Origin: Verrucomicrobiota bacterium
GTDB taxonomy: Bacteria > Verrucomicrobiota > Verrucomicrobiia > Limisphaerales > Palsa-1400
DNA length: 64,000 nucleotides
Direction: 5' to 3'
NCBI GenBank assembly: GCA_049510745.1
Contig: JBEKYR010000006.1
Span: 126,511-190,510 of the forward strand
Part shown: positions 45,054-58,898 of the stretch, one piece after another
How positions within the stretch are numbered: the first letter of the stretch is position 1
Layout: the number at the start of each line of letters is the position of its first letter
The notes under the pieces: model-generated
What the model was told of the DNA's origin: nothing
The model's input: only the letters and a program-made list of their open reading frames with translations
Databases searched by the model: none
Made by a program: the position numbers and the translations under genes

Positions 45054-47729
45054 ATGAAACTCACCGAGACACGCCCAACCGTTCCCCGCCGCCACCGCAA
45101 TCCCCTCAAGTCGTGGGGACCGCCGCTGCTGGCGGCCTGTTGCCTGGCCGCTTGTTGCTTCCAGGCAAAGGCCCAAACCTATAACCTGTCCAACACCTGG
45201 GCGCTGGCCGGCGCCACCCAAAACCTGGACACCGCCAACGACAACCGCGGCATATGCTACAACATCGCCAGCAACCAAGTCATCGTCAACAACAAGAGCA
45301 CGCACGTCATGACGGCTTATGACGGAGGCACCGGCGTCTCCAACTTCGTCGTCAATAGCAGCGGCCTTTCCGGCGGTAATTTCACCTTGAACAAACTCGG
45401 CTTTGCCAGCGACGGCATCCTCTACGGCGCCAACTTGAACACCACCGTCAGTCCAAGCTCCGCTTACAAAATATACTCATGGACGAACCTTTCGGTGGCG
45501 CCCTACAACTGCTACGCCACCACGGGAAGCGACGCGCTCGGGGTGTTCTCCGCACTCCCTCCCGGCACCTCCAAGCGCCTGGGTGACACCTGGGCCATCA
45601 CCGGCGGCGGCACCAACACCTTGATCCTGGCGGGCATGGCCTCCACAAATGCCTTTGCCCTCTTCTACACCACCGACGGCGTGAATTTCACACCCACTAT
45701 TATCACCGTCCCTCTTGCCCAACTTCCCGCCCCCGGCAGCGGCGTGCAATTTGGGCTTTGCTTCTATACCAACAACACCTTTCTCATCAACCCCAACGCC
45801 AGCGGTGGCAGCGGCAATCTTTATCTCGTCCAATTTCCGGCGAATTATGAAACCGCGGCCAGCCCGTTGACGGCGACCGTCCTGGCCACCAATGCGGGCC
45901 TGAGCGGCGATTGGCTGGACCTTTCCTACAGCGCGTCCGCCGGATTGCTGGCGACGCATGGCAATGCGGCCTCTCCCTCTTTCATTAATCTCTACAGTTT
46001 GCCGGCCACCAACTTTTCCGGCATGGCTTTGCTGGCCACAACGAATCTTTCCTTCACCACCACCCAAGGCATCAACGGCAATGAAACCGGAGACATCGCG
46101 CTGGGCGGCGCGGGCTATTCCAACGCAGTTTATACTTTGGACACCAGCGCCGGGCTTCAGGCGTCGGTGATCCTTTTCACCGCCGCTCCCATCTCCCCGT
46201 CCATCAGCGTCGAGCCTGTCGGTGGCGCGGCCTTCACCAATGTCGGCTCGTTCACTTTCTCCGTCGGCGCCACCGGCACGCAACCGCTGTCTTACCTTTG
46301 GCAGTACAACACGGTCAGCAACCTGGCGACGGCTGCGGACATTTCCGGCGCGACCAATTCCACCTACACCATCAGTCCTCTGACCACCAATGCCTCGGGA
46401 TGGTACGACGTGATCGTTTCCAATGTCGGCGGCGTCACTTCCAGCATTCCGGCGCAATTGACGGTCTATGTTCCTTCGGCCAGTTCTTCCTTCACCAACC
46501 TCTGGAATCTGGCCCCCGGCTCGCGGCCTTACCTGGGGGGACTCGACACTTACGATACCCGGGGCCTGGCTTTCGATACCAACACCATGACCCTGCTGGT
46601 GGCGGACAAGAACGGTTCGGAAACCGGCATTTTTGTGATAAGCGCCACTAACGGCAGCGACCTCTTTGCTCTCAACACCATCGGCATCGGCGTCAGCGGC
46701 GACCAGTTTCCCTTGGACCAGGTCGGCGTGGGAGACGACGGCGTGGTCTATGCCTGCAACCTTTACGACACCGGCAGCAGTGCCGGCACGTTCGCCATCT
46801 TTAGCTGGTCCAGTGTGACTAATACTGTGACTCCGCAGTTTGCGTACGGTCCGGGAGACCCCAGCGCGCCCGGCATTCAAGATCGATGGGGCGATACGAT
46901 GGCCGTGCGCGGGGCGGGCGTCAATACGGAGATCCTGCTGGGAAGCTATTACGGCTTTCTCAGCGGACCGTCCACCAACGCCGTCCTTTTGACCACGACA
47001 GATGGTTCCACTTTCACCTCGACGGCTCTGAGCATTACCAACGCGGCCGGGGTTCCGGCGGGCTTTTGCAGTCTGGGCATCTGCTTCGGAGTGGGCAACA
47101 CATTCTGGAGCAAGAGTCCCGGCTACGATCTGCGCGAAATCGCCTTCGATCCGGCGACCGGCAACTGCAATGTTCTGCTGGACTTGCCCGCCGGCGCCAG
47201 CGGCAATTCCAGCTTCAGCTCCATGTCCGCCATTTGCCTGGATCCGGTCAACAATATCCTGACCGGCATCACCTTCAACGACGTTCCCAACGACCTGGCG
47301 GTGTACCAACTCTACGGCCCGCCGGCGGCGACCCTGGCCATTCCGCCGCTCCTTGTGGACCAGGCCTTTTTCCCGTCCAACATCGGCAACAGCCAGGACA
47401 ACGGCGTAACCATCATCAAAGCCCCCTACATCTTCGGGCTTGACGTCAACAATGGAATTACGGCCCTGACTTATGCCCCGCCGCCCGGCCCGGCGCTTCC
47501 GCCCTTCAGCATCACCGCCATCGCCAATCAGGCCGGCACGGGCGTGACCCTCACCTGGCAATCCTACGCCGGGGTGAATTACCAGGTGGAATCCACCGGC
47601 GCTTTCCGGGGAACCCACACGGTCTGGACGCCGCTCGGCCCGCCCGTCACAGCCACAAATACGACGGCCTCCGCCACGGACATTAATCCGTCCGGCGCCG
47701 CCCGTTTCTACCAGGTTGTGATCCCGTAG
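45054..47729 (+). CDS. Secreted Ser/Thr/Asn-rich protein: two related beta-rich domains flanking an Ig domain, with C-terminal LTW...RFY domain
   Basis: Repeated RGI/RGL, DGxxY and GDTxA motifs; Ig motif GTQPLSYLWQ...GWYDVIVSN. Confidence 0.75.
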   Translation: MKLTETRPTVPRRHRNPLKSWGPPLLAACCLAACCFQAKAQTYNLSNTWALAGATQNLDTANDNRGICYNIASNQVIVNNKSTHVMTAYDGGTGVSNFVVNSSGLSGGNFTLNKLGFASDGILYGANLNTTVSPSSAYKIYSWTNLSVAPYNCYATTGSDALGVFSALPPGTSKRLGDTWAITGGGTNTLILAGMASTNAFALFYTTDGVNFTPTIITVPLAQLPAPGSGVQFGLCFYTNNTFLINPNASGGSGNLYLVQFPANYETAASPLTATVLATNAGLSGDWLDLSYSASAGLLATHGNAASPSFINLYSLPATNFSGMALLATTNLSFTTTQGINGNETGDIALGGAGYSNAVYTLDTSAGLQASVILFTAAPISPSISVEPVGGAAFTNVGSFTFSVGATGTQPLSYLWQYNTVSNLATAADISGATNSTYTISPLTTNASGWYDVIVSNVGGVTSSIPAQLTVYVPSASSSFTNLWNLAPGSRPYLGGLDTYDTRGLAFDTNTMTLLVADKNGSETGIFVISATNGSDLFALNTIGIGVSGDQFPLDQVGVGDDGVVYACNLYDTGSSAGTFAIFSWSSVTNTVTPQFAYGPGDPSAPGIQDRWGDTMAVRGAGVNTEILLGSYYGFLSGPSTNAVLLTTTDGSTFTSTALSITNAAGVPAGFCSLGICFGVGNTFWSKSPGYDLREIAFDPATGNCNVLLDLPAGASGNSSFSSMSAICLDPVNNILTGITFNDVPNDLAVYQLYGPPAATLAIPPLLVDQAFFPSNIGNSQDNGVTIIKAPYIFGLDVNNGITALTYAPPPGPALPPFSITAIANQAGTGVTLTWQSYAGVNYQVESTGAFRGTHTVWTPLGPPVTATNTTASATDINPSGAARFYQVVIP

Positions 47730-47753
47730 GGGCGCGAAATTGAATTCATGCAG

Positions 47754-47787
47754 CCGCGCCGCCGGCGCCAACCGGCGGCGCGGTTTT
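47754..47787 (+). terminator. Rho-independent terminator
   Basis: 12-bp stem ccgcgccgccgg/ccggcggcgcgg followed by TTTT. Confidence 0.65.
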
Positions 47788-48079
47788 CGCGGGTTCTTGA
47801 GCGCCGGCCCGCGTGGTTCCTTTCTCCCTCGTCCCCTCACCGCCCGCGGGCGGAAGTTTCGCGGAAGTGTTTGAGGGTGACGCCGGTGGCGTTTTTGAAG
47901 GCGACGGAAAAGGTGTTGGTGCTTTGATATTGCGATGAAGCCGGTGCACGTGGCCGTGCGCAATTATCTATTTTTTGACAGCCATGTGGGAAACAAGCGG
48001 GTCAACGGCCACGAAAACTTCTGATGTGACGAGTATTTCAGCTTCGTCTTGAGGGCGCGGGGGCGTTACGCTCTGAGGG

Positions 48080-48805
48080 ATGAAGATTTCGGTCATTGTG
48101 CCGGCGTTCAACGAGGAAAAACTCGTGGCCGCGACTCTGCGCAGCATCCAGGAGGCGGCCCGCAGTTTTACGCGGCGCGGCTGGGAGACGGAAATCATCG
48201 TTTGCGACAACAACTCGACGGACGCCACGGGGGACCTGGCGCGGGCGGCGGGCGCGCGGGTGGTCTTCGAGCCTGTCAATCAAATCGCGCGCGCCCGCAA
48301 CGCCGGCGCGGCGGCGGCCACCGGGGATTGGTTCATTTTTGTCGATGCCGACTCGCGGCCGACGGCGGAGTTGTTTGCGGAGGTGGCCGAAGAGGTTTGT
48401 CGCGGCGCCTGCCTGGCCGGCGGCTGCACGGTGCGGATGGATGAATGGCACTGGGCGGCGGCCGTCGGCACGGGCCTGTGGAACCTCGTCAGCCGGGTGA
48501 TGAAATGGGCGGCGGGGTCGTTTGTTTTTTGCGAGGCGGCGGCGTTTCGCAAGGCGGGGGGCTTCAGCCTGGAACTGTTCGCCTCGGAGGAGGTTGAACT
48601 GAGCCGGCGACTGAAGAAGCTGGCCAGGGAAAGCGGGAGGAAAATCGTCATTCTGCACCGGCATCCGCTCCTGACATCGGCGCGGAAAACGCGGCTCTAC
48701 TCGCGGGGCGACTGGCTGCGGTTTTTTGGAAAAGCGATTTTGAGCCCGCGGGCGACGATCACCAACCGGGAGGCGTGCGGGCCGTGGTACGACGGAAGGC
48801 GTTAG
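48080..48805 (+). CDS. GT2-family glycosyltransferase
   Basis: SVIVPAFNEE, VCDNNSTD, ARNAGA, FVDAD, ASEEVEL. Confidence 0.92.
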   Translation: MKISVIVPAFNEEKLVAATLRSIQEAARSFTRRGWETEIIVCDNNSTDATGDLARAAGARVVFEPVNQIARARNAGAAAATGDWFIFVDADSRPTAELFAEVAEEVCRGACLAGGCTVRMDEWHWAAAVGTGLWNLVSRVMKWAAGSFVFCEAAAFRKAGGFSLELFASEEVELSRRLKKLARESGRKIVILHRHPLLTSARKTRLYSRGDWLRFFGKAILSPRATITNREACGPWYDGRR

Positions 48806-48819
48806 AGCGAGCCTGGCGG

Positions 48820-48907
48820 GGTGAGCTCACCGGCCGCCGCCCTTCCGATGCTTCCGAATTGCCCGCCGACGTGCCGGGCGGCGGCTCGGCGCAACGTCTG
48901 GTTCGGC
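48820..48907 (-). mobile_element. attC-like integron recombination site (R' GTT missing)
   Basis: Minus strand GCCGAAC-cagac-GTTGCGCC, gccgccgccc/gggcggcggc stem, GGTGAGCTCACC. Confidence 0.7.
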
Positions 48908-49387
48908 ATTTTCTTTGCCGTCGTAGTAAACATCGAATCCCGCTTCTATGCCGCGATCTCCCAGGTACTTCATGACCTGTGGTGGAAGTCCGAAACCTTT
49001 GTTCCGCGAGGGCATCGAAAGCCCCACGAAGAAATCAACCTTGTATTTCTTCGTGAGCCTCTTCCAAAGCCCAACGGCAGACGGCAGACGGCGAAGCACC
49101 AACATCATGGCCTCGGCACAATCCCACTCGTCCGTTTCCGTCGGCTTCAAGACGAGCCGCCACGCTCCGAATCTGGCAATTCGCATCACCGTGCCGTCTT
49201 CTCGGAATACAGGTTTTCCTTTTTGTTGCGCCTCGTCAGGCTGACAACCCAGGAGCTTGGTCACTTCATCCGGGACAAGATCTTCGGAACTGATCCGGAA
49301 GCTCACGCTGAACCAATCGATCGGGCCACCGAACCAAACGGTCCCCGGCGGCGCGCCCTTCGGGATGGCTGGCTTTGGCGCTTTCAT
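48827..49387 (-). CDS. DUF4279-like cassette protein
   Basis: ISSEDLVPDEVTKLLGCQPD, GAWRL, GIEAGFDVY; ORF reads through the attC. Confidence 0.7.
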   Translation of the reverse strand: MKAPKPAIPKGAPPGTVWFGGPIDWFSVSFRISSEDLVPDEVTKLLGCQPDEAQQKGKPVFREDGTVMRIARFGAWRLVLKPTETDEWDCAEAMMLVLRRLPSAVGLWKRLTKKYKVDFFVGLSMPSRNKGFGLPPQVMKYLGDRGIEAGFDVYYDGKENAEPDVAPSRRPARRRAIRKHRKGGGR

Positions 49388-49390
49388 GCC

Positions 49391-49628
49391 AACTTTGATT
49401 ATGCGACGGCCGGTTCGTTTATTGAAACACAAAAATCCAGTCCTTCCGGGGAAGCTGGGCAATTCTTGCGCTTTCGCCTATGTCAAAAAATCGTTCACTT
49501 TCGGAATGGAATTGACAGGATGAACAGGATGAACAGGATGCGGAAATGGAAGAACAACTAGATTTTATCCTGTAAATCCTGTTCATCCTGTCAAAACGTC
49601 TTTCTTGGTTGCGGCTGGCCGCGTTGCG
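49391..49628. repeat. attI-like/GxxExxY unit, copy 1 (GxxExxY gene deleted)
   Basis: 49391-49557 is 159/167 identical to 50203-50369; 49564-49628 matches 50748-50811. Confidence 0.9.
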
Positions 49629-49695
49629 CCTTATGCGTTTCGTCTGGTCAGCAAAGAGGAAAAAGATCAGGTCCAGCGAGTCCGGCGACCAGGGC

Positions 49696-50196
49696 TTATC
49701 GGTCCGGTGCCGGGGAATCGGGGGATGTTATGGAAGCAGGGACAACCCGCCGCAACGCGCCGACGCCGGCAACCCGCCCAAAAACACCAATTTCATAGGC
49801 CTGACCCTTTGGTGACCCTCTGCCCGGCGCGGCGGTTGTTGCGTGCAGCGTCTTGTTCGGCGAGGCGGCGCGCCAAAGCGCACCAGCAAACAACGCGCTG
49901 AGAAGGACTGAACCACCGACAAATGCGCCCCAAAGACACCACAACCCTGTGATACTCCAACCTGCCTTGATCTCGTCCGGCTCGCTCATCGACCGCGGAA
50001 CGACATGTGCAACTGATTCTGGATGATGCACCCAGTCGCCAACAAATATGAAATCCATCGTGCCTCCGTCAGTGCAATAGTAGAGCTTGCCGTTGACGAA
50101 CGCATCCCACGCCCAAACGCAGACGAATGCCATCAGGAGCATGCTCATGGCAAATACTCCAACGCTTCCCATTACTCTGGCGAGGCTACCGTGCAT
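49696..50196 (-). CDS. Two-TM membrane cassette protein
   Basis: Starts just after GTTCGGC; tail PNKTLHAT is attC read-through. Confidence 0.65.
   Translation of the reverse strand: MHGSLARVMGSVGVFAMSMLLMAFVCVWAWDAFVNGKLYYCTDGGTMDFIFVGDWVHHPESVAHVVPRSMSEPDEIKAGWSITGLWCLWGAFVGGSVLLSALFAGALWRAASPNKTLHATTAAPGRGSPKGQAYEIGVFGRVAGVGALRRVVPASITSPDSPAPDR
49789..49821 (-). repeat. RAYT-type end repeat C with stutter
   Basis: agagggtcacc aaagggtcaggcctatgaaattggtg; 21/26 identical to 59235-59260. Confidence 0.6.
49822..49862 (-). mobile_element. Half attC site (R'' and L'' only)
   Basis: GCCGAAC-aagac-GCTGCACGCAAC; R'' is the exact complement of GTTCGGC at the cassette start. Confidence 0.7.
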
Positions 50197-50202
50197 ACGC
50201 CG

Positions 50203-50811
50203 AACTTTGATTATGCGACGGTTGGTTCGTTCATTAAAACACAAAAATCCAGTCCTTCCGGGGAAGCCGGGCAATTCTTGCGCTTTTGCCTATGTCAAAA
50301 AATCGTTCGCTTTCGGAAAGGAATTGACAGGATGAACAGGATGAACAGGATGCGGAAATGGAAGAACAAGAATTGACCGAAAAAATCATTGGCTGCACGA
50401 TGAAAGTTCATTCGGTGCTGGGACCGGGCTTTTTGGAGTCGGTTTACGCAAAGGCGTTGGCTCACGAGTTGCGCAAAGCCGGGCTGAAGGTCGAATGCGA
50501 GAAGCTGATCACGGTCAAATATGACGGCGTGGTGGTCGGCGACTTTTCCGCCGATAAGCTCGTGGCGGAGAAGGTCATGGTCGAAGAAAAAGCCATCCAA
50601 GCCCTCGCTCCGGCCCATGAAGCCCAGTTGGTGAATTACCTGACGGCGACCGGCATCGAGATCGGCCTGCTCCTGAACTTTGGCGCCCAACGTTTGGAGT
50701 TCAAACGCAAGTACCGGACCTATCGGGAAAAGGAACCCCCGAAAAACTTTATCCTGTAAATCCTGTTCATCCTGTCAAAACGTCTTTTTGGTTGCGGCTG
50801 GCCGCGCTGCG
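50203..50811. mobile_element. attI-like/GxxExxY unit, copy 2 (gene present)
   Basis: Repeat of 49391-49628; 28-bp inverted repeats 50324-50351 and 50751-50778 enclose the ORF. Confidence 0.8.
50358..50759 (+). CDS. GxxExxY protein (PD-(D/E)XK-like)
   Basis: VHSVLGPGFLESVY, AQLVNYL, GLLLNFG. Confidence 0.93.
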   Translation: MEEQELTEKIIGCTMKVHSVLGPGFLESVYAKALAHELRKAGLKVECEKLITVKYDGVVVGDFSADKLVAEKVMVEEKAIQALAPAHEAQLVNYLTATGIEIGLLLNFGAQRLEFKRKYRTYREKEPPKNFIL

Positions 50812-50921
50812 GCTTGGACAGCCTTTGTCCATGCGCCTGTTCCATAATCGGGTCAAAGTCAGGTCAAAGTTATGGCAAGGCCGGGGCGGACCGGCTATGT
50901 TAAAGCGAAACGGGAATTTAT

Positions 50922-51596
50922 ATGAATACGGGCGGCGCCAGCGGCATCATCCAGTTGCGACGGCTCTTGACGGAACGCTTTCCCCGCGCGCGAACGTGGG
51001 CGGAAAACGCCCCGCCCAAGACCCAGTCTTTCCTGCCGACGGGGCTGCCGCAGTTGGATGCGTTGCTGCAAGGCGGCTGGCTCAAAGGCGCGGTCACCGA
51101 GGTGGCCAGCCACGGGCCGGGCACGGGCAGCGCCCTGCTGCTGCGCGCGTTGCTGCGACAGACGCACCGGGCGGGCCGATGGATGGGGTTGATCGACGGC
51201 CGGGATTCCTTCGATCTGGCCGGGCTGGAGGCGGCGGTTTTGTCGCGGCTCTTTTGGGTGCGCTGCCAGACGGCGGAGGAGGCGCTGAAGGCGGCGGATT
51301 TTCTCCTGCGCGACCGCAATTTCCCCCTGATCGCGCTGGATTTGAAGATGAATCCCGCCGCCCAACTCCGAAAAATCTCCGGCACCACCTGGTATCGCCT
51401 GCAACGGATCGCGCGGCAAAACGCGACGACGTTGGTGGCGCTGACGCCGCGGGCCATGATCGCCGGCGCCGAGACGCGCCTGACGCTGGAAAGCCGGTTC
51501 ACCCTCTCCGCCTGGCCGCAAAGCGAAGAAGAACTCGTCAACCAGTTGGAATTTGACCTGGCCCGCTCCGCCGAGGCCGCCCAGGCCGCCGGCTAG
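50922..51596 (+). CDS. imuA: ImuA/RecA-like translesion-synthesis-associated protein
   Basis: LPTGLPQLDALLQGG...AVTEV; first gene of the cassette. Confidence 0.8.
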   Translation: MNTGGASGIIQLRRLLTERFPRARTWAENAPPKTQSFLPTGLPQLDALLQGGWLKGAVTEVASHGPGTGSALLLRALLRQTHRAGRWMGLIDGRDSFDLAGLEAAVLSRLFWVRCQTAEEALKAADFLLRDRNFPLIALDLKMNPAAQLRKISGTTWYRLQRIARQNATTLVALTPRAMIAGAETRLTLESRFTLSAWPQSEEELVNQLEFDLARSAEAAQAAG

Positions 51597-51609
51597 TCAA
51601 CTTTAAAAC

Positions 51610-53085
51610 TTGAGCATGTTCGCCGTCATCCACCTTCCCGATTTTGCGTTGCAGGCCGCCTTGCGGCCCGAACCGGAGTTGTGGCCGCGGCCGGTGGCGC
51701 TGCTGGAGGACGCGCCGGCCAAGGCGGTGGTCTGGCAAATGACGGAAGCGGCGCGGCAGGCGGGGGTGGGCCGCGGCCTGACGGCCACCCAGGCGACGGC
51801 CCGTTGCCGCGACGTGGTGATCAAAACGCGCGCGCGCGCGCAGGAACAAACCGTCACCGCCCTGCTGCTGCAATGCGCCGCGTGTTTTTCCCCGGCCGTC
51901 GAGGCGACGGCGGAAGGCGTTTGCACCCTGGACTTGAAGGGCCTTCCCGTGGCGGGGGAATTGGAAAAGTGGGCGCAAACAATAATTGACTCGCTGGCCC
52001 GGCTGCAATTGCGGGCGCGCGTCGGCGCCGCCGCCACGCCGCAGCTTGCCGGGCTGGCGGCCCAACGGGCGCGGCCCTTTTTGCTGGCGCGGAACGCGGA
52101 GGAATTCATCGCGGCGCTGCCGTTGGAAGCGTTGGAGCCGGACGCGGAGACGCTGGAAATCCTGGAAATGTGGGGCATCCGCACCGTGGGCGGGTTCCTG
52201 GCCCTGGGCAAGGAGAACCTGGCCGAACGCCTCGGCCCGGAAGCGGTGGAACTGTTCGAGCGGGCGTCCAGCCGCCGGGCGCGTCCGCTCCATCTGGCCG
52301 TCCCGGCGGAGACGTTTGAAGAAGGGATGGATTTTGAGCCGCCGGTCGAAACGCTCGAACCGCTGCTCTTCGTCCTGCGCCGCTTTGTCGGGCAATTGGC
52401 CCGGCGGCTGGAGATGGTTTATCAGGTGGCGGCGGAACTGGACCTGCGCCTGGGCCTCTCTTCCGGCGCCGTCTGCCGGCGCCTTTTCGTCATCCCCGCT
52501 CCCACGCGCGAGGTGGAGACGCTCTTCCGCATCCTGCAAACCCATTTGGAAAATGTCCGCACCGACGCGCCGATCGTCTCGTTGCGGCTGTGCGCCAAAC
52601 CGGGCCGGGCGGCGCGCCATCAATTCGGTTTGTTCGAAGCCGCCTTGCGCGATCCCAATCAATTCCATGAAACGCTGGCCCGTCTCAGCGCGCTGCTCGG
52701 AAGCCAGCGCGTCGGCACGCCGCGCCTGGAGGAAACGCACCGGCCGGACAGTTTTCGGATGGAATTGGAGGGGTTGAGCGCGCCGTCTGCGGACGAACCC
52801 GCCGCCGACGCCGGCCATGAACCGCCCACCGGCCCAGCCTTGCGCCGCTTCCGGCCTCCCCTGCCCGCGACCGTGGAGATGCGCTCGGAACAGCCGGCGC
52901 TCTTGCGCAGCGCGCCCTTCACCGGCCCGATCGCGCGGGTGCGCGGGCCGTGGCGGGTGTCCGGCCATTGGTGGGACGCCCAGGCGTGGGCGCGCGAGGA
53001 GTGGGACGCGCAAACTCACCAAGGCGAATTGTTCCGCCTGGCGCGGCAGGGCGAACAATGGTTTGTCGATGGAATTTTTGATTGA
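51610..53085 (+). CDS. imuB: Inactive Y-family polymerase ImuB
   Basis: ARQAGVGRGLT, CFSPAVE, WGIRTVG, GPWRVSGHWW. Confidence 0.88.
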   Translation: MSMFAVIHLPDFALQAALRPEPELWPRPVALLEDAPAKAVVWQMTEAARQAGVGRGLTATQATARCRDVVIKTRARAQEQTVTALLLQCAACFSPAVEATAEGVCTLDLKGLPVAGELEKWAQTIIDSLARLQLRARVGAAATPQLAGLAAQRARPFLLARNAEEFIAALPLEALEPDAETLEILEMWGIRTVGGFLALGKENLAERLGPEAVELFERASSRRARPLHLAVPAETFEEGMDFEPPVETLEPLLFVLRRFVGQLARRLEMVYQVAAELDLRLGLSSGAVCRRLFVIPAPTREVETLFRILQTHLENVRTDAPIVSLRLCAKPGRAARHQFGLFEAALRDPNQFHETLARLSALLGSQRVGTPRLEETHRPDSFRMELEGLSAPSADEPAADAGHEPPTGPALRRFRPPLPATVEMRSEQPALLRSAPFTGPIARVRGPWRVSGHWWDAQAWAREEWDAQTHQGELFRLARQGEQWFVDGIFD

Positions 53086-53087
53086 CC

Positions 53088-56000
53088 ATGTACGCCGAAC
53101 TCCACGCGCGCAGCGCCTTTAGTTTTCTCCGGGCCTCCTCCCCGCCGGAGCAACTGGCCGCCGCCGCCGCCGAACTGGGCCTGCGCGCGCTGGCGTTGTG
53201 CGACCGGGACGGCCTCTATGGCGCTCCGCGCTTCTGCCAGGCGGCCAGGGAACACGGCCTGCGCCCGATCCTGGGCGCGGAAGTCACGATGGAGGACGGC
53301 GCCGTGCTGCCGGTGCTGGTGGAAAACCGCGCCGGCTACCAGAACCTCTGCCGCCTGCTCACGCGCGCCCATCTGCGCGCCGCCAAGGGCGAAAGCCGGG
53401 TCGAGTGGAGCGAATGGCCGGAATTCGCCGAAGGATTGGTCGCGCTGACCGGCGACGAGGAAGGCCCGCTGGCCCGGGAAATCCGGGCGGACCGGGCCAA
53501 CGCGCGGGGCGCCCCCAAGGCGGCGCGGATGATGGAACAACTTCTGCGGATTTTCGGCCGCGACCGGCTCCACGTCGAAATCCACCGCCACCGCCGGCGC
53601 GGGGAGGAAGTTGTCAATAATACCCTTGCGCGGCTGGCGGAGGCCTTTTCCCTGCCGCTGCTGGCCGCCAACGGCCCGCTTTACGCGCGCCCCGGCGGGC
53701 GCCAGGCGCTGGACGTGTTCACCTGCATCCGGCATCACACGCACCTGGACGCCGCCGGCAAATTGCTGGCGCCCAACAGCGAGCGTTATTTGAAAGGCGC
53801 GGCGGAGATGACGGCCCTGTTCCGGGACCTGCCGGAGGCGGTGGAAAACACGGGCCGCCTGGCGGACCGGCTTTCTTTCACCTTGTCGGATTTGGGCTAC
53901 GAGTTTCCGCGCTACCCCGTGGCCGCGGGCGAAACAATGGAAGGCGTGCTGTGCGGGCAGACGCTGGCCGGGGCACGGCGCCGTTACGAGGGCGCGATTC
54001 CCGCCAAAGTGGCCCGGCAAATCGAACAGGAGCTGGCCGTCATCGAAAAGCTCGGGTTCGCCGGATACTTTTTGATCGTGGCGGACCTGGTCCGATTCTG
54101 CCGCGAGCACGACATCATGGCGCAGGGCCGCGGCAGCGCGGCCAACAGCACGGTCTGTTTCTGTCTCGGCATCACGGCGGTCGATCCGCTCAAATACCAT
54201 ACGCTCTTCGAGCGTTTTCTGAGCGAGGGACGCAAAGGCTGGCCGGACATTGATCTGGACCTGCCGAGCGGCGAGCGGCGCGAAAAGGTGATCCAGGAAG
54301 TGTATCGGCGCTACGGCCCGTGCGGCGCGGCCATGACGGCCAACGTCATCACCTATCGCGGGCGCAGCGCCGCACGCGAAATCGGCAAGGCGCTGAATTT
54401 CCCGGACAGCTTGCTCGACCGTTTTTCCCATCTCTTCGGTCACGGCGATTATCCGCACACCCTGGACCTGAGCGAGCAAATGGAGCGGGCCGGATTGCCC
54501 CGGGAACATCCGCGCGCCGCCGCGTTCGCTGCGCTTTACGCCCAGATTCATTCCTTGCCCCGCCATCTGGGCCAGCATTCCGGCGGCATGATTATTTGCC
54601 AGGGCAAATTGGATTCCGTCGTCCCCCTGGAAAACGCCGCCATGCCCGGACGCGTCGTCGCTCAATGGGACAAGGACGATTGCGAAGACCTGGGCATCAT
54701 CAAGGTCGATCTGCTCGGCTTGGGCATGATGTCGGTGTTGCAGGAGGCCATCGCCTTGACCGGCCGGCGCGGCCAGCCCGTCGATCTGGCAAAAATTCCC
54801 AACGACGACCCCGCCACCTTTCAAATGATGTGCCAGGCGGACACGATCGGCGTCTTCCAAATCGAGAGCCGCGCGCAAATGGCGACCTTGCCGCGCCTGA
54901 AGCCGAAATGTTTTTACGACGTGGTGGTCGAGGTGGCGATCATCCGCCCCGGCCCCATCCAGGGCGACATGGTGCATCCCTATTTGGCGCGGCGGGCCGG
55001 GCGCGAACCGGTGGTGTATGACGACGAGCGGCTGCGGCCCGTCCTGGAGCGCACGCTGGGCGTGCCGCTGTTCCAGGAGCAGCTCCTGCAAATCGCCATG
55101 GTCATGGCCGGTTTTTCCGGCGCCGAAGCCGAGGAATTGCGCCGCGCCGTCAGCTCCTGGCGCTCGGGGGAACGGATGCAAAAGGTCACGGCCAAAATGC
55201 GCGCCAACATGGAGGCCAGAGGGGTCGCGCCGGATATTATTGACAGGATTTTGAAGGCGGTCGCCTCGTTCGCGCTCTACGGTTTTCCCGAATCGCACGC
55301 CATCAGTTTCGCCATCCTCGCCTACGGCAGCGCGTGGTTGAAAGCGCACCGGGCGCCGGAGTTTTACACCGCCCTCCTGAACAATCAGCCGATGGGTTTC
55401 TACGCGCCCGCCACCCTGGTCCGCGATGCCAGACGGCACGGCGTCAAAATACGGCCCGTCTGCGTGGCGCGCTCCGAGTGGCAGTGCGTCATCGAGCCGG
55501 ATGACGCCGTCCGCCTGGGCTTCTGCCTCGTGCAAGGAATGCAACGCGAACAGGTCCTGCGGCTGCTGGAGGAGCGGCGGGGCCGGCCCTTTGTTTCGAT
55601 GGAGGATTTCAAAAGGCGGAGCGGATTGAACAAGGCCGGGTGGCGCGCCCTGGCGGAAATCGGCGCGCTCAACTGCCTGGCCCGCCACCGCCGCGACGCG
55701 CTCTGGCAGGTGGAGAAAGATATATTTGACGACGATTTGTTTTCCTGGGCCGCGCGCCGGGCCGGCGCCGCCGCGCCCGCGGAGGAGCCGTCCCCGCTGG
55801 CGGCGATGGCGGCCACGGAGCGGCTGCGGGCGGATTACAAGCGCCTGCGTTTGACGACCGGGCCGCATCCGATGGCGCTGGCGCGACCGCAACTGGCCGG
55901 CGTCTGGCGGGCGGGCGACCTCCCGGCGGCGCGGCATGGCCAGACCGTGCGCATCGCCGGCAACGTGATATGCCGGCAGCGGCCCGGCACGGCCAAGGGA

Positions 56001-56219
56001 TTTGTCTTCATCAGCCTGGAAGATGAGACCGGCGTGAGCAACGCCATCGTCACGCCCAAGCTATTCGAGGAATTGCGCCTGGTCATCACCCAGGAACCGT
56101 TCCTGGAAATCGAAGGCCCGGTGCAAAACACGGACAACGTGATTGTGATCAAGGCCCGCCGCATCGCCGCGCTGCCGCCCAACAAACTGGCCGCCGCCGC
56201 CTCGCACGATTTTCATTGA
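53088..56219 (+). CDS. dnaE2: Error-prone DNA polymerase III alpha subunit
   Basis: YAELHARSAFSFL, GRGSAANS, PDIDLD, RQRPGTAKG, C-terminal SHDFH. Confidence 0.96.
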   Translation: MYAELHARSAFSFLRASSPPEQLAAAAAELGLRALALCDRDGLYGAPRFCQAAREHGLRPILGAEVTMEDGAVLPVLVENRAGYQNLCRLLTRAHLRAAKGESRVEWSEWPEFAEGLVALTGDEEGPLAREIRADRANARGAPKAARMMEQLLRIFGRDRLHVEIHRHRRRGEEVVNNTLARLAEAFSLPLLAANGPLYARPGGRQALDVFTCIRHHTHLDAAGKLLAPNSERYLKGAAEMTALFRDLPEAVENTGRLADRLSFTLSDLGYEFPRYPVAAGETMEGVLCGQTLAGARRRYEGAIPAKVARQIEQELAVIEKLGFAGYFLIVADLVRFCREHDIMAQGRGSAANSTVCFCLGITAVDPLKYHTLFERFLSEGRKGWPDIDLDLPSGERREKVIQEVYRRYGPCGAAMTANVITYRGRSAAREIGKALNFPDSLLDRFSHLFGHGDYPHTLDLSEQMERAGLPREHPRAAAFAALYAQIHSLPRHLGQHSGGMIICQGKLDSVVPLENAAMPGRVVAQWDKDDCEDLGIIKVDLLGLGMMSVLQEAIALTGRRGQPVDLAKIPNDDPATFQMMCQADTIGVFQIESRAQMATLPRLKPKCFYDVVVEVAIIRPGPIQGDMVHPYLARRAGREPVVYDDERLRPVLERTLGVPLFQEQLLQIAMVMAGFSGAEAEELRRAVSSWRSGERMQKVTAKMRANMEARGVAPDIIDRILKAVASFALYGFPESHAISFAILAYGSAWLKAHRAPEFYTALLNNQPMGFYAPATLVRDARRHGVKIRPVCVARSEWQCVIEPDDAVRLGFCLVQGMQREQVLRLLEERRGRPFVSMEDFKRRSGLNKAGWRALAEIGALNCLARHRRDALWQVEKDIFDDDLFSWAARRAGAAAPAEEPSPLAAMAATERLRADYKRLRLTTGPHPMALARPQLAGVWRAGDLPAARHGQTVRIAGNVICRQRPGTAKGFVFISLEDETGVSNAIVTPKLFEELRLVITQEPFLEIEGPVQNTDNVIVIKARRIAALPPNKLAAAASHDFH

Positions 56220-56539: not shown

Positions 56540-56812
56540 ATGACACCCATCCAAGAACTTGGCGTAATCGAGGAGCTGGTTCTGAATCGCGCATCGCCAG
56601 CAGAAATCCGTCCCCATTTACTTTTGCTTCTTCCACAGATTGAGGCTTTGGTTCAAAAGGAACAGGCATACGCCACACTCGAAAAGGCGAACGCGGAACT
56701 CAAAGAGCAGTTTTCTAAGTTCGAGACGAAAGCTCGTGTCCAGATCTCCAATCTTCAACGGCAAAACTCCGACCTTGAGTCCCAGCTTCGGGTCGTAACC
56801 CTCGGTTTTTAG
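56540..56812 (+). CDS. Hypothetical coiled-coil protein
   Basis: 90-aa ORF with heptad pattern; low GC. Confidence 0.5.
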   Translation: MTPIQELGVIEELVLNRASPAEIRPHLLLLLPQIEALVQKEQAYATLEKANAELKEQFSKFETKARVQISNLQRQNSDLESQLRVVTLGF

Positions 56813-56945
56813 TAATGACCCCTAACAAATGTCACCCAATTTGTAGGACAGACATTCTGGGTTTTCCCTCCGGGCAATGCCCTGCAAAAATAGACCCCGT
56901 CACGTCCCTTTTTTGGAGCGAACACGGGCGCACAGAAAGGATTCT

Positions 56946-57752
56946 ATGTTAGTCCGATGCTCCTGCGAACATTGTGCGGAAAGAATCGAATTTGAAGCGG
57001 ACGACCTTACGGAAGAAAACTGCATTGTGGCGTGTCCACATTGCGGACTCGATACCAAACTTGCTATTGATAGGGAAGGGCCTCTTCCAATTCCTGAGGA
57101 CGCTGGTGGCAAAGTGTTCAACGACCTCGGTGAAGAACTCGAATTCCTTGAATCCCTGAAGGCTAAGCCTCCCGCTGAAGCAATGGCCGCTTATCGCGCT
57201 TACTCGAAGGCGAACAAAGGAACATGGGAATGCCGACAAAAGGAAATGCACGACATGGTTACCAGATTAACCGCTAGCGTGAGAAAGGATGAAACAACCG
57301 CAAAAATCCGCTGGCGCAACGACGAAATGGAACTGGACAGTGATAGAATCATCATCCGCCGGCGGGGGATGGCAAACGCCCTCGCAGTCGGACTCAACGG
57401 AGAACGAACAATCCTCATTTCGACTTTGACCGCTATTCAAATGAAACCCGCTGGATTGTTCTCACCCGGCTACATCCTGTTTTCGTACGCTGGAAGCAAG
57501 CCGTTTCTAGGTGGTGTAATCGAAGCCACACAAGACCCTGATGCGTTCATTTTTGACCCGGCATCAAACGACCAAGTTGCGGCCTTCAAGGCCAAGGTCG
57601 AAAAAATTATGCGCGATTCAAGACAATCCGCCACAGCCTCAAATTCTCCAGCCACCCTGGGGGATGAGCTTCGGAAGCTCGCCGAACTTAAACAACAGGG
57701 CATCCTGTCACAGGAAGAGTTCGACATGGCGAAGAAAAAGTTGCTCGCTTAA
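56946..57752 (+). CDS. Zn-ribbon + PH-like (DUF4429-like) + SHOCT domain protein
   Basis: CEHC...CPHCG; DELRKLAELKQQGILSQEEFDMAKKKLL. Confidence 0.75.
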   Translation: MLVRCSCEHCAERIEFEADDLTEENCIVACPHCGLDTKLAIDREGPLPIPEDAGGKVFNDLGEELEFLESLKAKPPAEAMAAYRAYSKANKGTWECRQKEMHDMVTRLTASVRKDETTAKIRWRNDEMELDSDRIIIRRRGMANALAVGLNGERTILISTLTAIQMKPAGLFSPGYILFSYAGSKPFLGGVIEATQDPDAFIFDPASNDQVAAFKAKVEKIMRDSRQSATASNSPATLGDELRKLAELKQQGILSQEEFDMAKKKLLA

Positions 57753-58051
57753 AGCCGCCTGTGGAATTTCGGACGTGCGAGGCGCAACCTTCGGTTAATC
57801 TGCGAGGAAGCCTTTAAATCCCGGGGCGCGCGCTGTAAAAGCCCAGCACCGAATCTTCGCAAACGCTGGGCCTCCACGATCATCGCAGCCTCGCTCGGCG
57901 GTCCAGATGGTAACATTTCTTTGCTCATACATATTGCGCCGAGTCAACTCTGAGCGTCGCAGCAAGTAGAAAAACACCTTGGAAAAGCCGCAGGAAGACC
58001 AATCCAAAAACAAGTCGAAAGTAGGTCCCTACGTAGGCTCTACAGAAGCTT

Positions 58052-58546
58052 TCAGCGGAATCGTTTCAACGATTGCATCGCAAGCTTGCGCACCTCTTCG
58101 ACCCATTGCGTGTCGGAAAGAAGAGCCTCAAGCTCCTCCCTGGTGCGGTTTTCGAGCGGCTTTAATCGGATGCACTTCTGCAAATCCTGCTTGAGCCGCA
58201 CGACCCGACACAGAAAAACGGTGAACTTACCTAGCGGTGGCGGCTTGCTCTCCTTTTTCTCCCGGATGCGTTCTTTCATTTTCTCCCGCTCGAATTCTCT
58301 ATCCTTCCTCAGCCGACACTTGATCTGTTCAATTCTCTCAAGATATTTGCCTTCCCAAGAGTGCTCGTCTTTTCTAGCAAATGATTCGTTCATTTCGGCG
58401 ATCGATGCTTTTATCTGATCGTTTGGAGCCGGTCCCAGGTAAAGACGATAACGCGTGCGTGGTCTTCCTGTGTTGTCGCGGTAGCTTGAAACCAAGTACC
58501 AGCGCCGTTTGCCCTTCACCATTTTGGCCTGCGCTCGAATCTTCAT
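58052..58546 (-). CDS. Basic hypothetical protein, N-terminus resembling IS1634-type DNA-binding domains
   Basis: WYLVSSYRDNTGRPRTRYRLYLG; no DDE domain. Confidence 0.5.
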   Translation of the reverse strand: MKIRAQAKMVKGKRRWYLVSSYRDNTGRPRTRYRLYLGPAPNDQIKASIAEMNESFARKDEHSWEGKYLERIEQIKCRLRKDREFEREKMKERIREKKESKPPPLGKFTVFLCRVVRLKQDLQKCIRLKPLENRTREELEALLSDTQWVEEVRKLAMQSLKRFR

Positions 58547-58898
58547 CTCAACCTGTCCTTAATATTCAACCGTCACTTCGTTTATTGCAATGCCCGAATA
58601 ACATCGCACCCCCGCCACCCAATCCTAGAAGTTATCCCCACTCCGGGGCGAGCAACGCAAGGGAGGCGTCATCCGGCGTCCATCCTCCAATTTGATCCGG
58701 GCAGAGTTCATCGTCAAGCGAGCCACCCATACCCTCCGGCTGACGCCGGGGGGGTGGCGGAACCCCTTTGCATGAGTTTCACAGGTGGCAGAAATGCCGC
58801 CTTGTCCGCCATGGCATTTTGCGACGGCGGAAGCCTTGGCAGCGTTCAATCACCCTTCCCTTGAGTCTATGGCCCCGTTTGAGGCTGGCTTTAGCAGG

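Follow-up and report, generated by a model that had tools for sequence, protein, structure and literature searches.

Candidate solo attI sites loaded with different gene cassettes at a rearranged Verrucomicrobiota locus, and their possible carriage by IS21 elements

In the window (the whole stretch of 64,000 nucleotides analysed here), two almost identical DNA segments stand in front of two different small genes. The question is whether these segments are integron attachment sites and, if so, how sites with no integrase beside them came to hold different cassettes. The initial annotation had described a 167-bp unit whose two copies agree at 159 positions and diverge exactly at a GTT on the minus strand. 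Both points are borne out, as the repeat finder and BLAST identify a direct repeat at 49391-49557 and 50203-50369 (167 nt, 95.2% identity, 159/167). Read on the minus strand, the two copies finish with CATAATCAAAGTT, and their identity stops at the GTT. Different ORFs follow, with ATG codons at 49387 (3 nt after the GTT) and 50196 (6 nt after), again as described. An assembly error is an unlikely source of the tandem, since a metagenome contig (L095), which may share its source with the assembly, matches window positions 47670-51118 at 99.97%, and contigs from four of four peat runs match pieces of the stretch, none spanning all of it.

The locus is bounded on the left by a host GT2 glycosyltransferase gene (48080-48805, plus strand, Pfam PF00535), convergent with the cassettes. 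Cassette 1 (48827-49387, minus strand) encodes a DUF4279 protein of 186 aa (PF14106, E = 7e-16). Its stop codon lies inside attC1 (48811-48907, minus strand), a full-length, degenerate site with R'' GCCGAAC and R' GCCAGGC. The gene is preceded by the attI-a module (49391-49448, minus strand), which scores 48 bits with a matrix trained on relatives' copies. It consists of an A/T-rich upstream tract, a promoter-like hexamer pair TTCAAT-17 nt-CATAAT that surrounds an imperfect palindrome, the tetranucleotide CAAA, and the crossover GTT at 49393-49391. Upstream of the module are a 63-bp spacer (49449-49511), an empty GxxExxY-type MITE of 87 bp with 28-bp inverted repeats (I3) and no gene (49512-49598), a REP-like short repeat with a 54-bp linker common to a composite on contig C5 (49599-49699), and a dispersed 113-bp repeat (49700-49812), found at about 14 places in the genome, which stands in for the right half of attC2. 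Cassette 2 (49696-50196, minus strand) encodes a membrane-type hypothetical protein with no Pfam match, and of attC2 (49820-49861, minus strand) the half-site matrix and covariance model R1 recognise the left half only (R'' GCCGAAC and the L'' box). Then follow the attI-b module (50203-50260, minus strand) with the crossover GTT at 50205-50203 and the entry GTTCGGC, the second copy of the spacer (50261-50323), and a full GxxExxY element (50324-50782, plus strand), where inverted repeats (I5) surround a PD-(D/E)XK gene at 50358-50759 (TIGR04256, 139 bits; PF13366). The right boundary is an imuA-like gene (50922-51596, plus strand; neighbour PF00817). It opens a mutagenesis cluster at 50922-56219 that we take to be of the imuA-imuB-dnaE2 type. 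Further to the right, short low-GC ORFs at 56540-58546, one with DUF4429 and SHOCT domains, suggest a small accessory island. A third, decayed copy of the attI/promoter motif (58561-58590, minus strand, 36.7 bits) lies before the ORF 58052-58546; the GTT is absent at its usual place, and no attC was found there.

The 167-bp repeat is not a single element. It is a composite of about 58 bp of attI, the 63-bp spacer and 46 bp of the GxxExxY/MITE end, and only the first 58 or so bases are attI-like. The last 46 bases are the end of a many-copy MITE. Bases 59-167 recur without the GTT end at C5:88644-89015, where the third copy of the spacer and a MITE, but no attI, lie beside a MoxR gene. A genome-wide BLAST search for further copies of the whole 167 bp, which had been suggested as support for a dispersible unit, found only the two in the window.

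Is the module that ends in GTT a true attI? In the alignment of attI-a with the attI of an integron from another Verrucomicrobiota genome (L091), 32 of the 36 core bases are identical. There a full-length, divergent intI starts 17 bases away from the core, and four attC sites follow the core. The same core is found between divergent intI genes and attC arrays in L086 (intI frameshifted), L090 (5' part of intI), L110 and L111, and its distance from the intI start is 7-17 nt in L090, L110, L111 and L021 (the L110 row was left out of the core alignment of attI sites). A search of the GTDB collection for the exact core pattern gave 27 loci; going by the record titles, most belong to Verrucomicrobiota. 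In the window's own family, a sister version of attI lies 7 bases from the intI start in the complete integrons G043, G045 and G015; it differs in sequence from the window's variant. The IntI of these complete integrons passes TIGR02249 (281.6 versus the cut-off of 265). Thus a copy of the motif next to intI, which the initial annotation had proposed to look for, does exist in relatives, e.g. L091 and G043. The hexamer pair 17 nt apart is conserved across the attI alignments, and a scan of the attI region for consensus sigma-70 promoters gave 0 sites.

The position of the join is conserved as well. The entry complements R'' perfectly in 16 of 22 testable sites (shuffle mean 3.2, maximum 11 in 10,000); a site counts as testable if it has a GTT entry and an attC was found downstream, and as these sites are related, no clean probability can be attached to this count. 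Among the sites without a nearby intI the match is perfect in 9 of 13 (shuffle mean 1.5), or in 8 of 12 if L081, with a contig end matching an intI start, is dropped. Four contigs of one peat run follow the unit exactly to 49391 and then differ, and their loose consensus (agreement 0.61) ends in letters reading as a GTTAGGC entry. Divergence is thus fixed at GTT, the property on which the attI interpretation had been made to depend. Judged by these comparisons, the repeat ends in a real attI site, homologous to the attI of complete integrons.

The attC sites were identified by a covariance model, R1, trained on 15 integron attC sites, all taken from relatives' genomes and none from this one. 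Together with half-site matrices it replaced regular-expression and plain profile searches, which were too insensitive (the profile missed attC1). Among the nine matches listed in the window, attC1 is the only significant one (47.6 bits, E = 9e-10). The score of attC2 is 8.6 bits (E = 3.8) on the full model and 25.8 bits on the left-half matrix. Its right half is missing, as the site is cut after about 42 nt by the 113-bp repeat; the cassette 2 ORF has lost its own stop codon and reads through the broken attC into this repeat. Hence, of the two genes said to end in attC-like sites, cassette 1 does so with a full, degenerate site that passes the covariance model, whereas cassette 2 retains a left half that does not. 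The R' of attC1 contains no GTT, and its R'' and R' arms are unpaired. The bottom strand folds no better than shuffled sequences (z = +0.74 versus -3.3 for a relative's intact attC). As previously noticed, the entry GTTCGGC of cassette 2 is the exact complement (7/7) of its R'' at 49861-49855; the entry of cassette 1, GTTGGC, is one base short of the complement of its own R''. The mobility of cassettes is known to require the R' core and the R''/R' stem. Given an R' with no GTT in attC1 and half a site in attC2, both cassettes are probably immobile, decayed substrates. With one full degenerate attC and one half attC, the locus would formally be classed as a SALIN on model R1, or else as a small CALIN. 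A single homologue of cassette 2 was found in 30 family genomes (G004); it is frameshifted and lies behind a sigma-factor gene, where inspection by eye found no attI or attC. The genome-wide covariance search yielded at least 10 attC matches, with 150 of 5188 candidates scored.

The motif itself is dispersed, and other copies do precede different cassettes, as the initial annotation had anticipated. With the matrix trained on relatives' copies, the genome contains 19 motifs of at least 20 bits. An attC left half lies within 1.5 kb downstream of eight of them (seven distinct cassettes, the window's two counted), compared with 0.5% of random positions and 0/19 on the opposite strand. Behind the motifs stand, for the most part, small accessory ORFs with a GC content of 0.47-0.59 versus 0.60, and many of the entries and R' sites at these motifs have decayed by transitions. 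Related copies were found in 9 of the 24 family genomes searched. The window is not the only case of internal attI units, since at an orthologous place in G016 and G011 several units are scattered among cassettes, and the cargo of the two genomes differs in part. This locus (L099, G016:C1:2682000-2701000; L100, G011:C32:70000-89000) lies upstream of an 867-aa gene, and its attI modules are fused to attC left halves. The window's upstream variant was detected by a pattern search at up to three mismatches in 4 of 301 order-level genomes; none of these copies was shown next to intI. There is also a longer form (C6:6285-6411, C4:14884-14999, L089, L067, L061), in which two motifs are about 90 bp apart and an ORF of about 22 codons stops in the second. 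This ORF recalls the leader ORF in class 1 attI.

There is no intI in cis at the locus, and a profile search of the assembly, which is 94% complete, gave no TIGR02249 match over the cut-off. Comparison of the clade IntI with the genome retrieved only short intI 5' fragments at about six places (contigs C2, C38, C81, C10 and C6), none of them in the window locus. One such fragment lies directly beside a motif at C2:59934. The surrounding region, C2:59741-60830, just downstream of a chaperonin-like gene, is a decayed integron with an intI 5' pseudogene, a motif with CTT for GTT, two low-GC ORFs and half an attC. Full-length IntI, 86-100% identical to the query across genera, is encoded in 4 of the 30 family genomes, and fragments are present in seven more. 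In many family genomes the intI fragments (L110-L129) break off around codon 74-107, shortly past a conserved motif, and several such copies per genome keep attI and cassette arrays.

The neighbourhood of the two units has been rearranged. In G001 the MoxR gene is the neighbour of the imuA-type cluster, whereas here MoxR is on C5 beside the attI-free composite of spacer and MITE. In G002 and G012 the GT2 gene abuts a glyoxalase gene; here the glyoxalase gene is 168 kb away, beside another attI pair. This synteny suggests that two ancestral neighbourhoods broke and meet at the window locus, where a CCCGG join links attI to the spacer. The tandem motif pair beside the glyoxalase gene (L009, C6:5200-7100) may be the other half of the breakpoint, 168 kb off. 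It holds a 98-aa cassette (entry 7/7) and one of the SUFU family, and its attC has GTCAGGC as R'.

The likely carrier of the intI-less attI variant is IS21 rather than the GxxExxY element, as suggested by the flanks of the other copies. Many motif copies in the genome are flanked by an istB tail on one side and an IS21 right end on the other, and the gene differs from copy to copy. Relics of the right end with different small ORFs were observed at C1:54751-55527, C42:5185-5987, C57:12028-12862, C7:58535-59105 and C5:50083-50719 and on C18 and C29; several of them have lost the motif but keep a GTT-type entry. The IS21 segment was found in 24 of 30 family genomes, and the IS21 of relatives is over the cut-offs of NF033546 and NF038214. 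G041 has a complete IS21 of 3079 bp with a 7-bp target duplication, a passenger at the same place and only a remnant of the attI end. In G009 the order is istB, decayed motif, ORF, right end. Seven IS21 elements, with istB ends 88-94% alike, differ after istB, and five of the seven contain an ORF bounded by the right end. The window's upstream tract is the last part of the IS21-internal segment in L094, L097, L089 and L177.

A tally of 99 distinct motif sites with flanks of up to 1.5 kb points in the same direction, with IS21 shares that are inflated, as part of the sites were fetched by the IS21 segment. The window-type variant (34 sites) has 0 intI and 14 IS21 flanks, and the leader-preceded variant (15 sites) has 0 and 10. 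IS21 flanks are absent from all 19 intI-adjacent sites and present at four of the remaining 31. Of the 34 sites of the window's variant, 20 are without an IS21 flank, and the window's own two copies are among them. At terminal sites of this variant the GTT is kept in 11 of 27 cases and an attC left half in 4 of 27. One deletion sub-variant occurs in three genomes with three cassettes, whose entries are GTTGGAC, GTTAGGC and GTTATGC. No near-identical IS21 pair with different cassettes was found within one genome; in G011 the same cassette start recurs in all five copies of an IS21 end that has a clear attI.

One possibility is that the GxxExxY element mobilises the attI unit, as first proposed. 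Both window copies are joined to GxxExxY-type ends. In unit b the element, with its gene, does stand where a divergent intI would be expected, whereas unit a has only the empty 87-bp MITE. However, only 2 of the 99 motif sites, the window's own copies, have GxxExxY or its MITE upstream. Among the 23 MITE-end clusters of the genome the only two within 500 bp of a motif are those of the window, and so are the two of the 19 genome motifs with GxxExxY or the MITE nearby. Moreover, attI lies outside the inverted repeats of the element, spacer and MITE occur without attI on C5, and the synteny places the spacer in the MoxR-imuA region. The contact is local and incidental, the idea that the platform is dispersed with the GxxExxY unit is not upheld, and this explanation is very improbable. 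Another possibility is that the motif is a host promoter or operator, e.g. of the SOS regulon, and that cassettes entered behind it as attG-type insertions. The imperfect palindrome between promoter-like hexamers would suit an operator, and attG insertion requires just GWT according to 10.1101/2022.09.11.507474. However, the motif is the attI of complete integrons, and the genes behind it are, as described, mostly accessory ORFs of lower GC content. For the SOS regulon in particular, the regions upstream of recA and imuA contain neither the motif nor either of two LexA-box patterns, and no lexA over the cut-off was found in the assembly. We give this explanation hardly any credence.

A different explanation is that each copy is a relic of a complete integron which lost intI on the spot, the cassettes having been loaded earlier in cis; the units would then be SALIN/CALIN remnants that keep attI. 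Indeed, the family shows a gradient from full intI (4/30 genomes) through frameshifted to 5'-truncated copies, intI fragments are scattered over this genome with one directly at a motif, and the attC sites are decayed. On the other hand, the 34 sites of the window's variant share an upstream sequence that is not intI, with no trace of intI. The four peat-run contigs that leave the unit at 49391 hint at near-identical intI-less modules with different cassettes. Finally, the window copies share the attI-spacer join, in place of intI, yet differ from the GTT on, so one cassette change post-dates the fusion. This combination of a shared join and different cassettes is the strongest local argument for loading without intI in cis, and the deletion sub-variant with its three cassettes in three genomes speaks for it likewise. 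Local loss of intI from each copy appears unlikely. Alternatively, a master integron might load all cassettes, after which recombination, whether homologous or at microhomologies, would paste attI with the first cassette into IS21 ends, MITE composites or half attC sites, the solo sites themselves capturing nothing. The copies are patchworks with variable deletions, attC sites are cut at variable places, and near the same CCCGG point the module is fused to the IS21 tail, to an attC left half (G016, G011) or to the MITE spacer, all of which would agree with pasting. However, each crossover would need to hit the 36-bp core, the family's intI-adjacent attI is unlike the window's variant in sequence, and in L089 an intact multi-cassette array (attC sites of 94.5 and 91.3 bits) stands behind an intI-less module. 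This scenario seems quite unlikely.

On the best reading, the two units would be solo, integrase-less copies of a compact attI/promoter from a Verrucomicrobiota integron clade. We favour, with a probability of slightly under 0.6, an IS21-borne solo attI that was loaded by IntI in trans and is now decaying at a rearrangement breakpoint. One attI may have lost its intI, entered an IS21 transporter element and spread by transposition. IntI from elsewhere (a complete integron of the clade, in relatives now or in the lineage earlier) would then have loaded different cassettes at the GTT, and the first cassette gene would be expressed from the module's own predicted promoter. Later decay of the IS parts and attC sites would have fixed single genes. 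The window module presumably lost all IS21 sequence and was fused at the short CCCGG join to the MoxR-imuA intergenic spacer with its GxxExxY/MITE during the rearrangement; the fused module may then have been duplicated locally, and at least one copy would have changed its cassette at the GTT. Capture in trans can be inferred with good reason. Against the IS21-borne reading weighs the fact that no intact intI was found in the assembly, so that present-day capture is without a known enzyme. The single cassette common to the five G011 copies, the 20 window-type sites lacking an IS21 flank, the low share of terminal sites that keep the GTT or an attC left half, and the empty sigma-70 scan also count against it. 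Whole integrons clearly also decay in place, as witnessed by the many copies of attI with 5'-truncated intI in the family (C2:59741-59934 in this genome).

A more general, tentative suggestion, with the odds slightly against it, is a two-part capture system: IS21 spreads an integrase-less attI with its promoter, a visiting mobile IntI loads cassettes in trans, and loss of the GTT or of half the attC locks the genes in place. If this is true, single "orphan" cassettes and rearrangement breakpoints would have a general source that has gone undetected, the solo attI sites. Bare capture sites inside IS elements would explain why captured genes are scattered singly around the chromosome. How integrase-less cassettes (CALIN, SALIN) originate has yet to be settled, and the IS21-borne solo attI would add a third route. 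With a defined attI, the IntI clade cognate to it and a likely IS21 carrier all identified, this route lends itself directly to a conventional recombination assay. The window locus, being decayed, is valuable as a pointer to a family-wide system. Openly accessible papers were found to describe neither arrays of solo attI sites nor an IS21 whose passenger slot holds an attI.

In its way of working the locus resembles an integron platform, yet without intI it does not amount to a complete integron. The common features are an attI with a GTT crossover, an entry heptamer complementary to R'', a promoter-like site that would feed the first cassette, and small accessory genes ended by attC. The differences are the lack of intI in cis, the many copies per genome, the single decayed cassettes, and a second attI within the array. 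In integron mobilisation units and MITE-flanked integrons, two small ends bracket a defective class 1 integron. This is analogous in that small mobile ends move a part of an integron which needs enzymes in trans; here, however, the MITE is on one side only and incidental. The GxxExxY element (TIGR04256) is recognisable by the gene and inverted repeats in unit b and by its empty form in unit a, but attI is outside the element and has no association with it elsewhere. SALINs, CALINs and attG insertions are similar in that isolated cassettes or short clusters have no integrase nearby, as described in 10.1101/2022.09.11.507474 and PMC4889954; here, however, the cassettes are behind a recognisable attI homologue and not a generic GWT site. 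The former source proposes attG insertion as a route to integrase-less cassettes, and the latter states that 95% of CALINs are without an intI pseudogene. According to PMC9024848, attI outside class 1 is not detected by IntegronFinder, so solo-attI units would be filed as SALIN or CALIN or missed. Transporter IS (tIS) are IS derivatives with passenger genes; attI is not mentioned in the accessible part of their description (PMC9330008). The IS21 copies of G041, G009 and G011 agree with tIS and the IS21 family: they have IstA/IstB, terminal repeats and a target duplication, and their passenger sits between istB and the right end. They differ in that the passenger slot is an attI/cassette unit which varies among related copies, while the window copies are without IS21 sequence.
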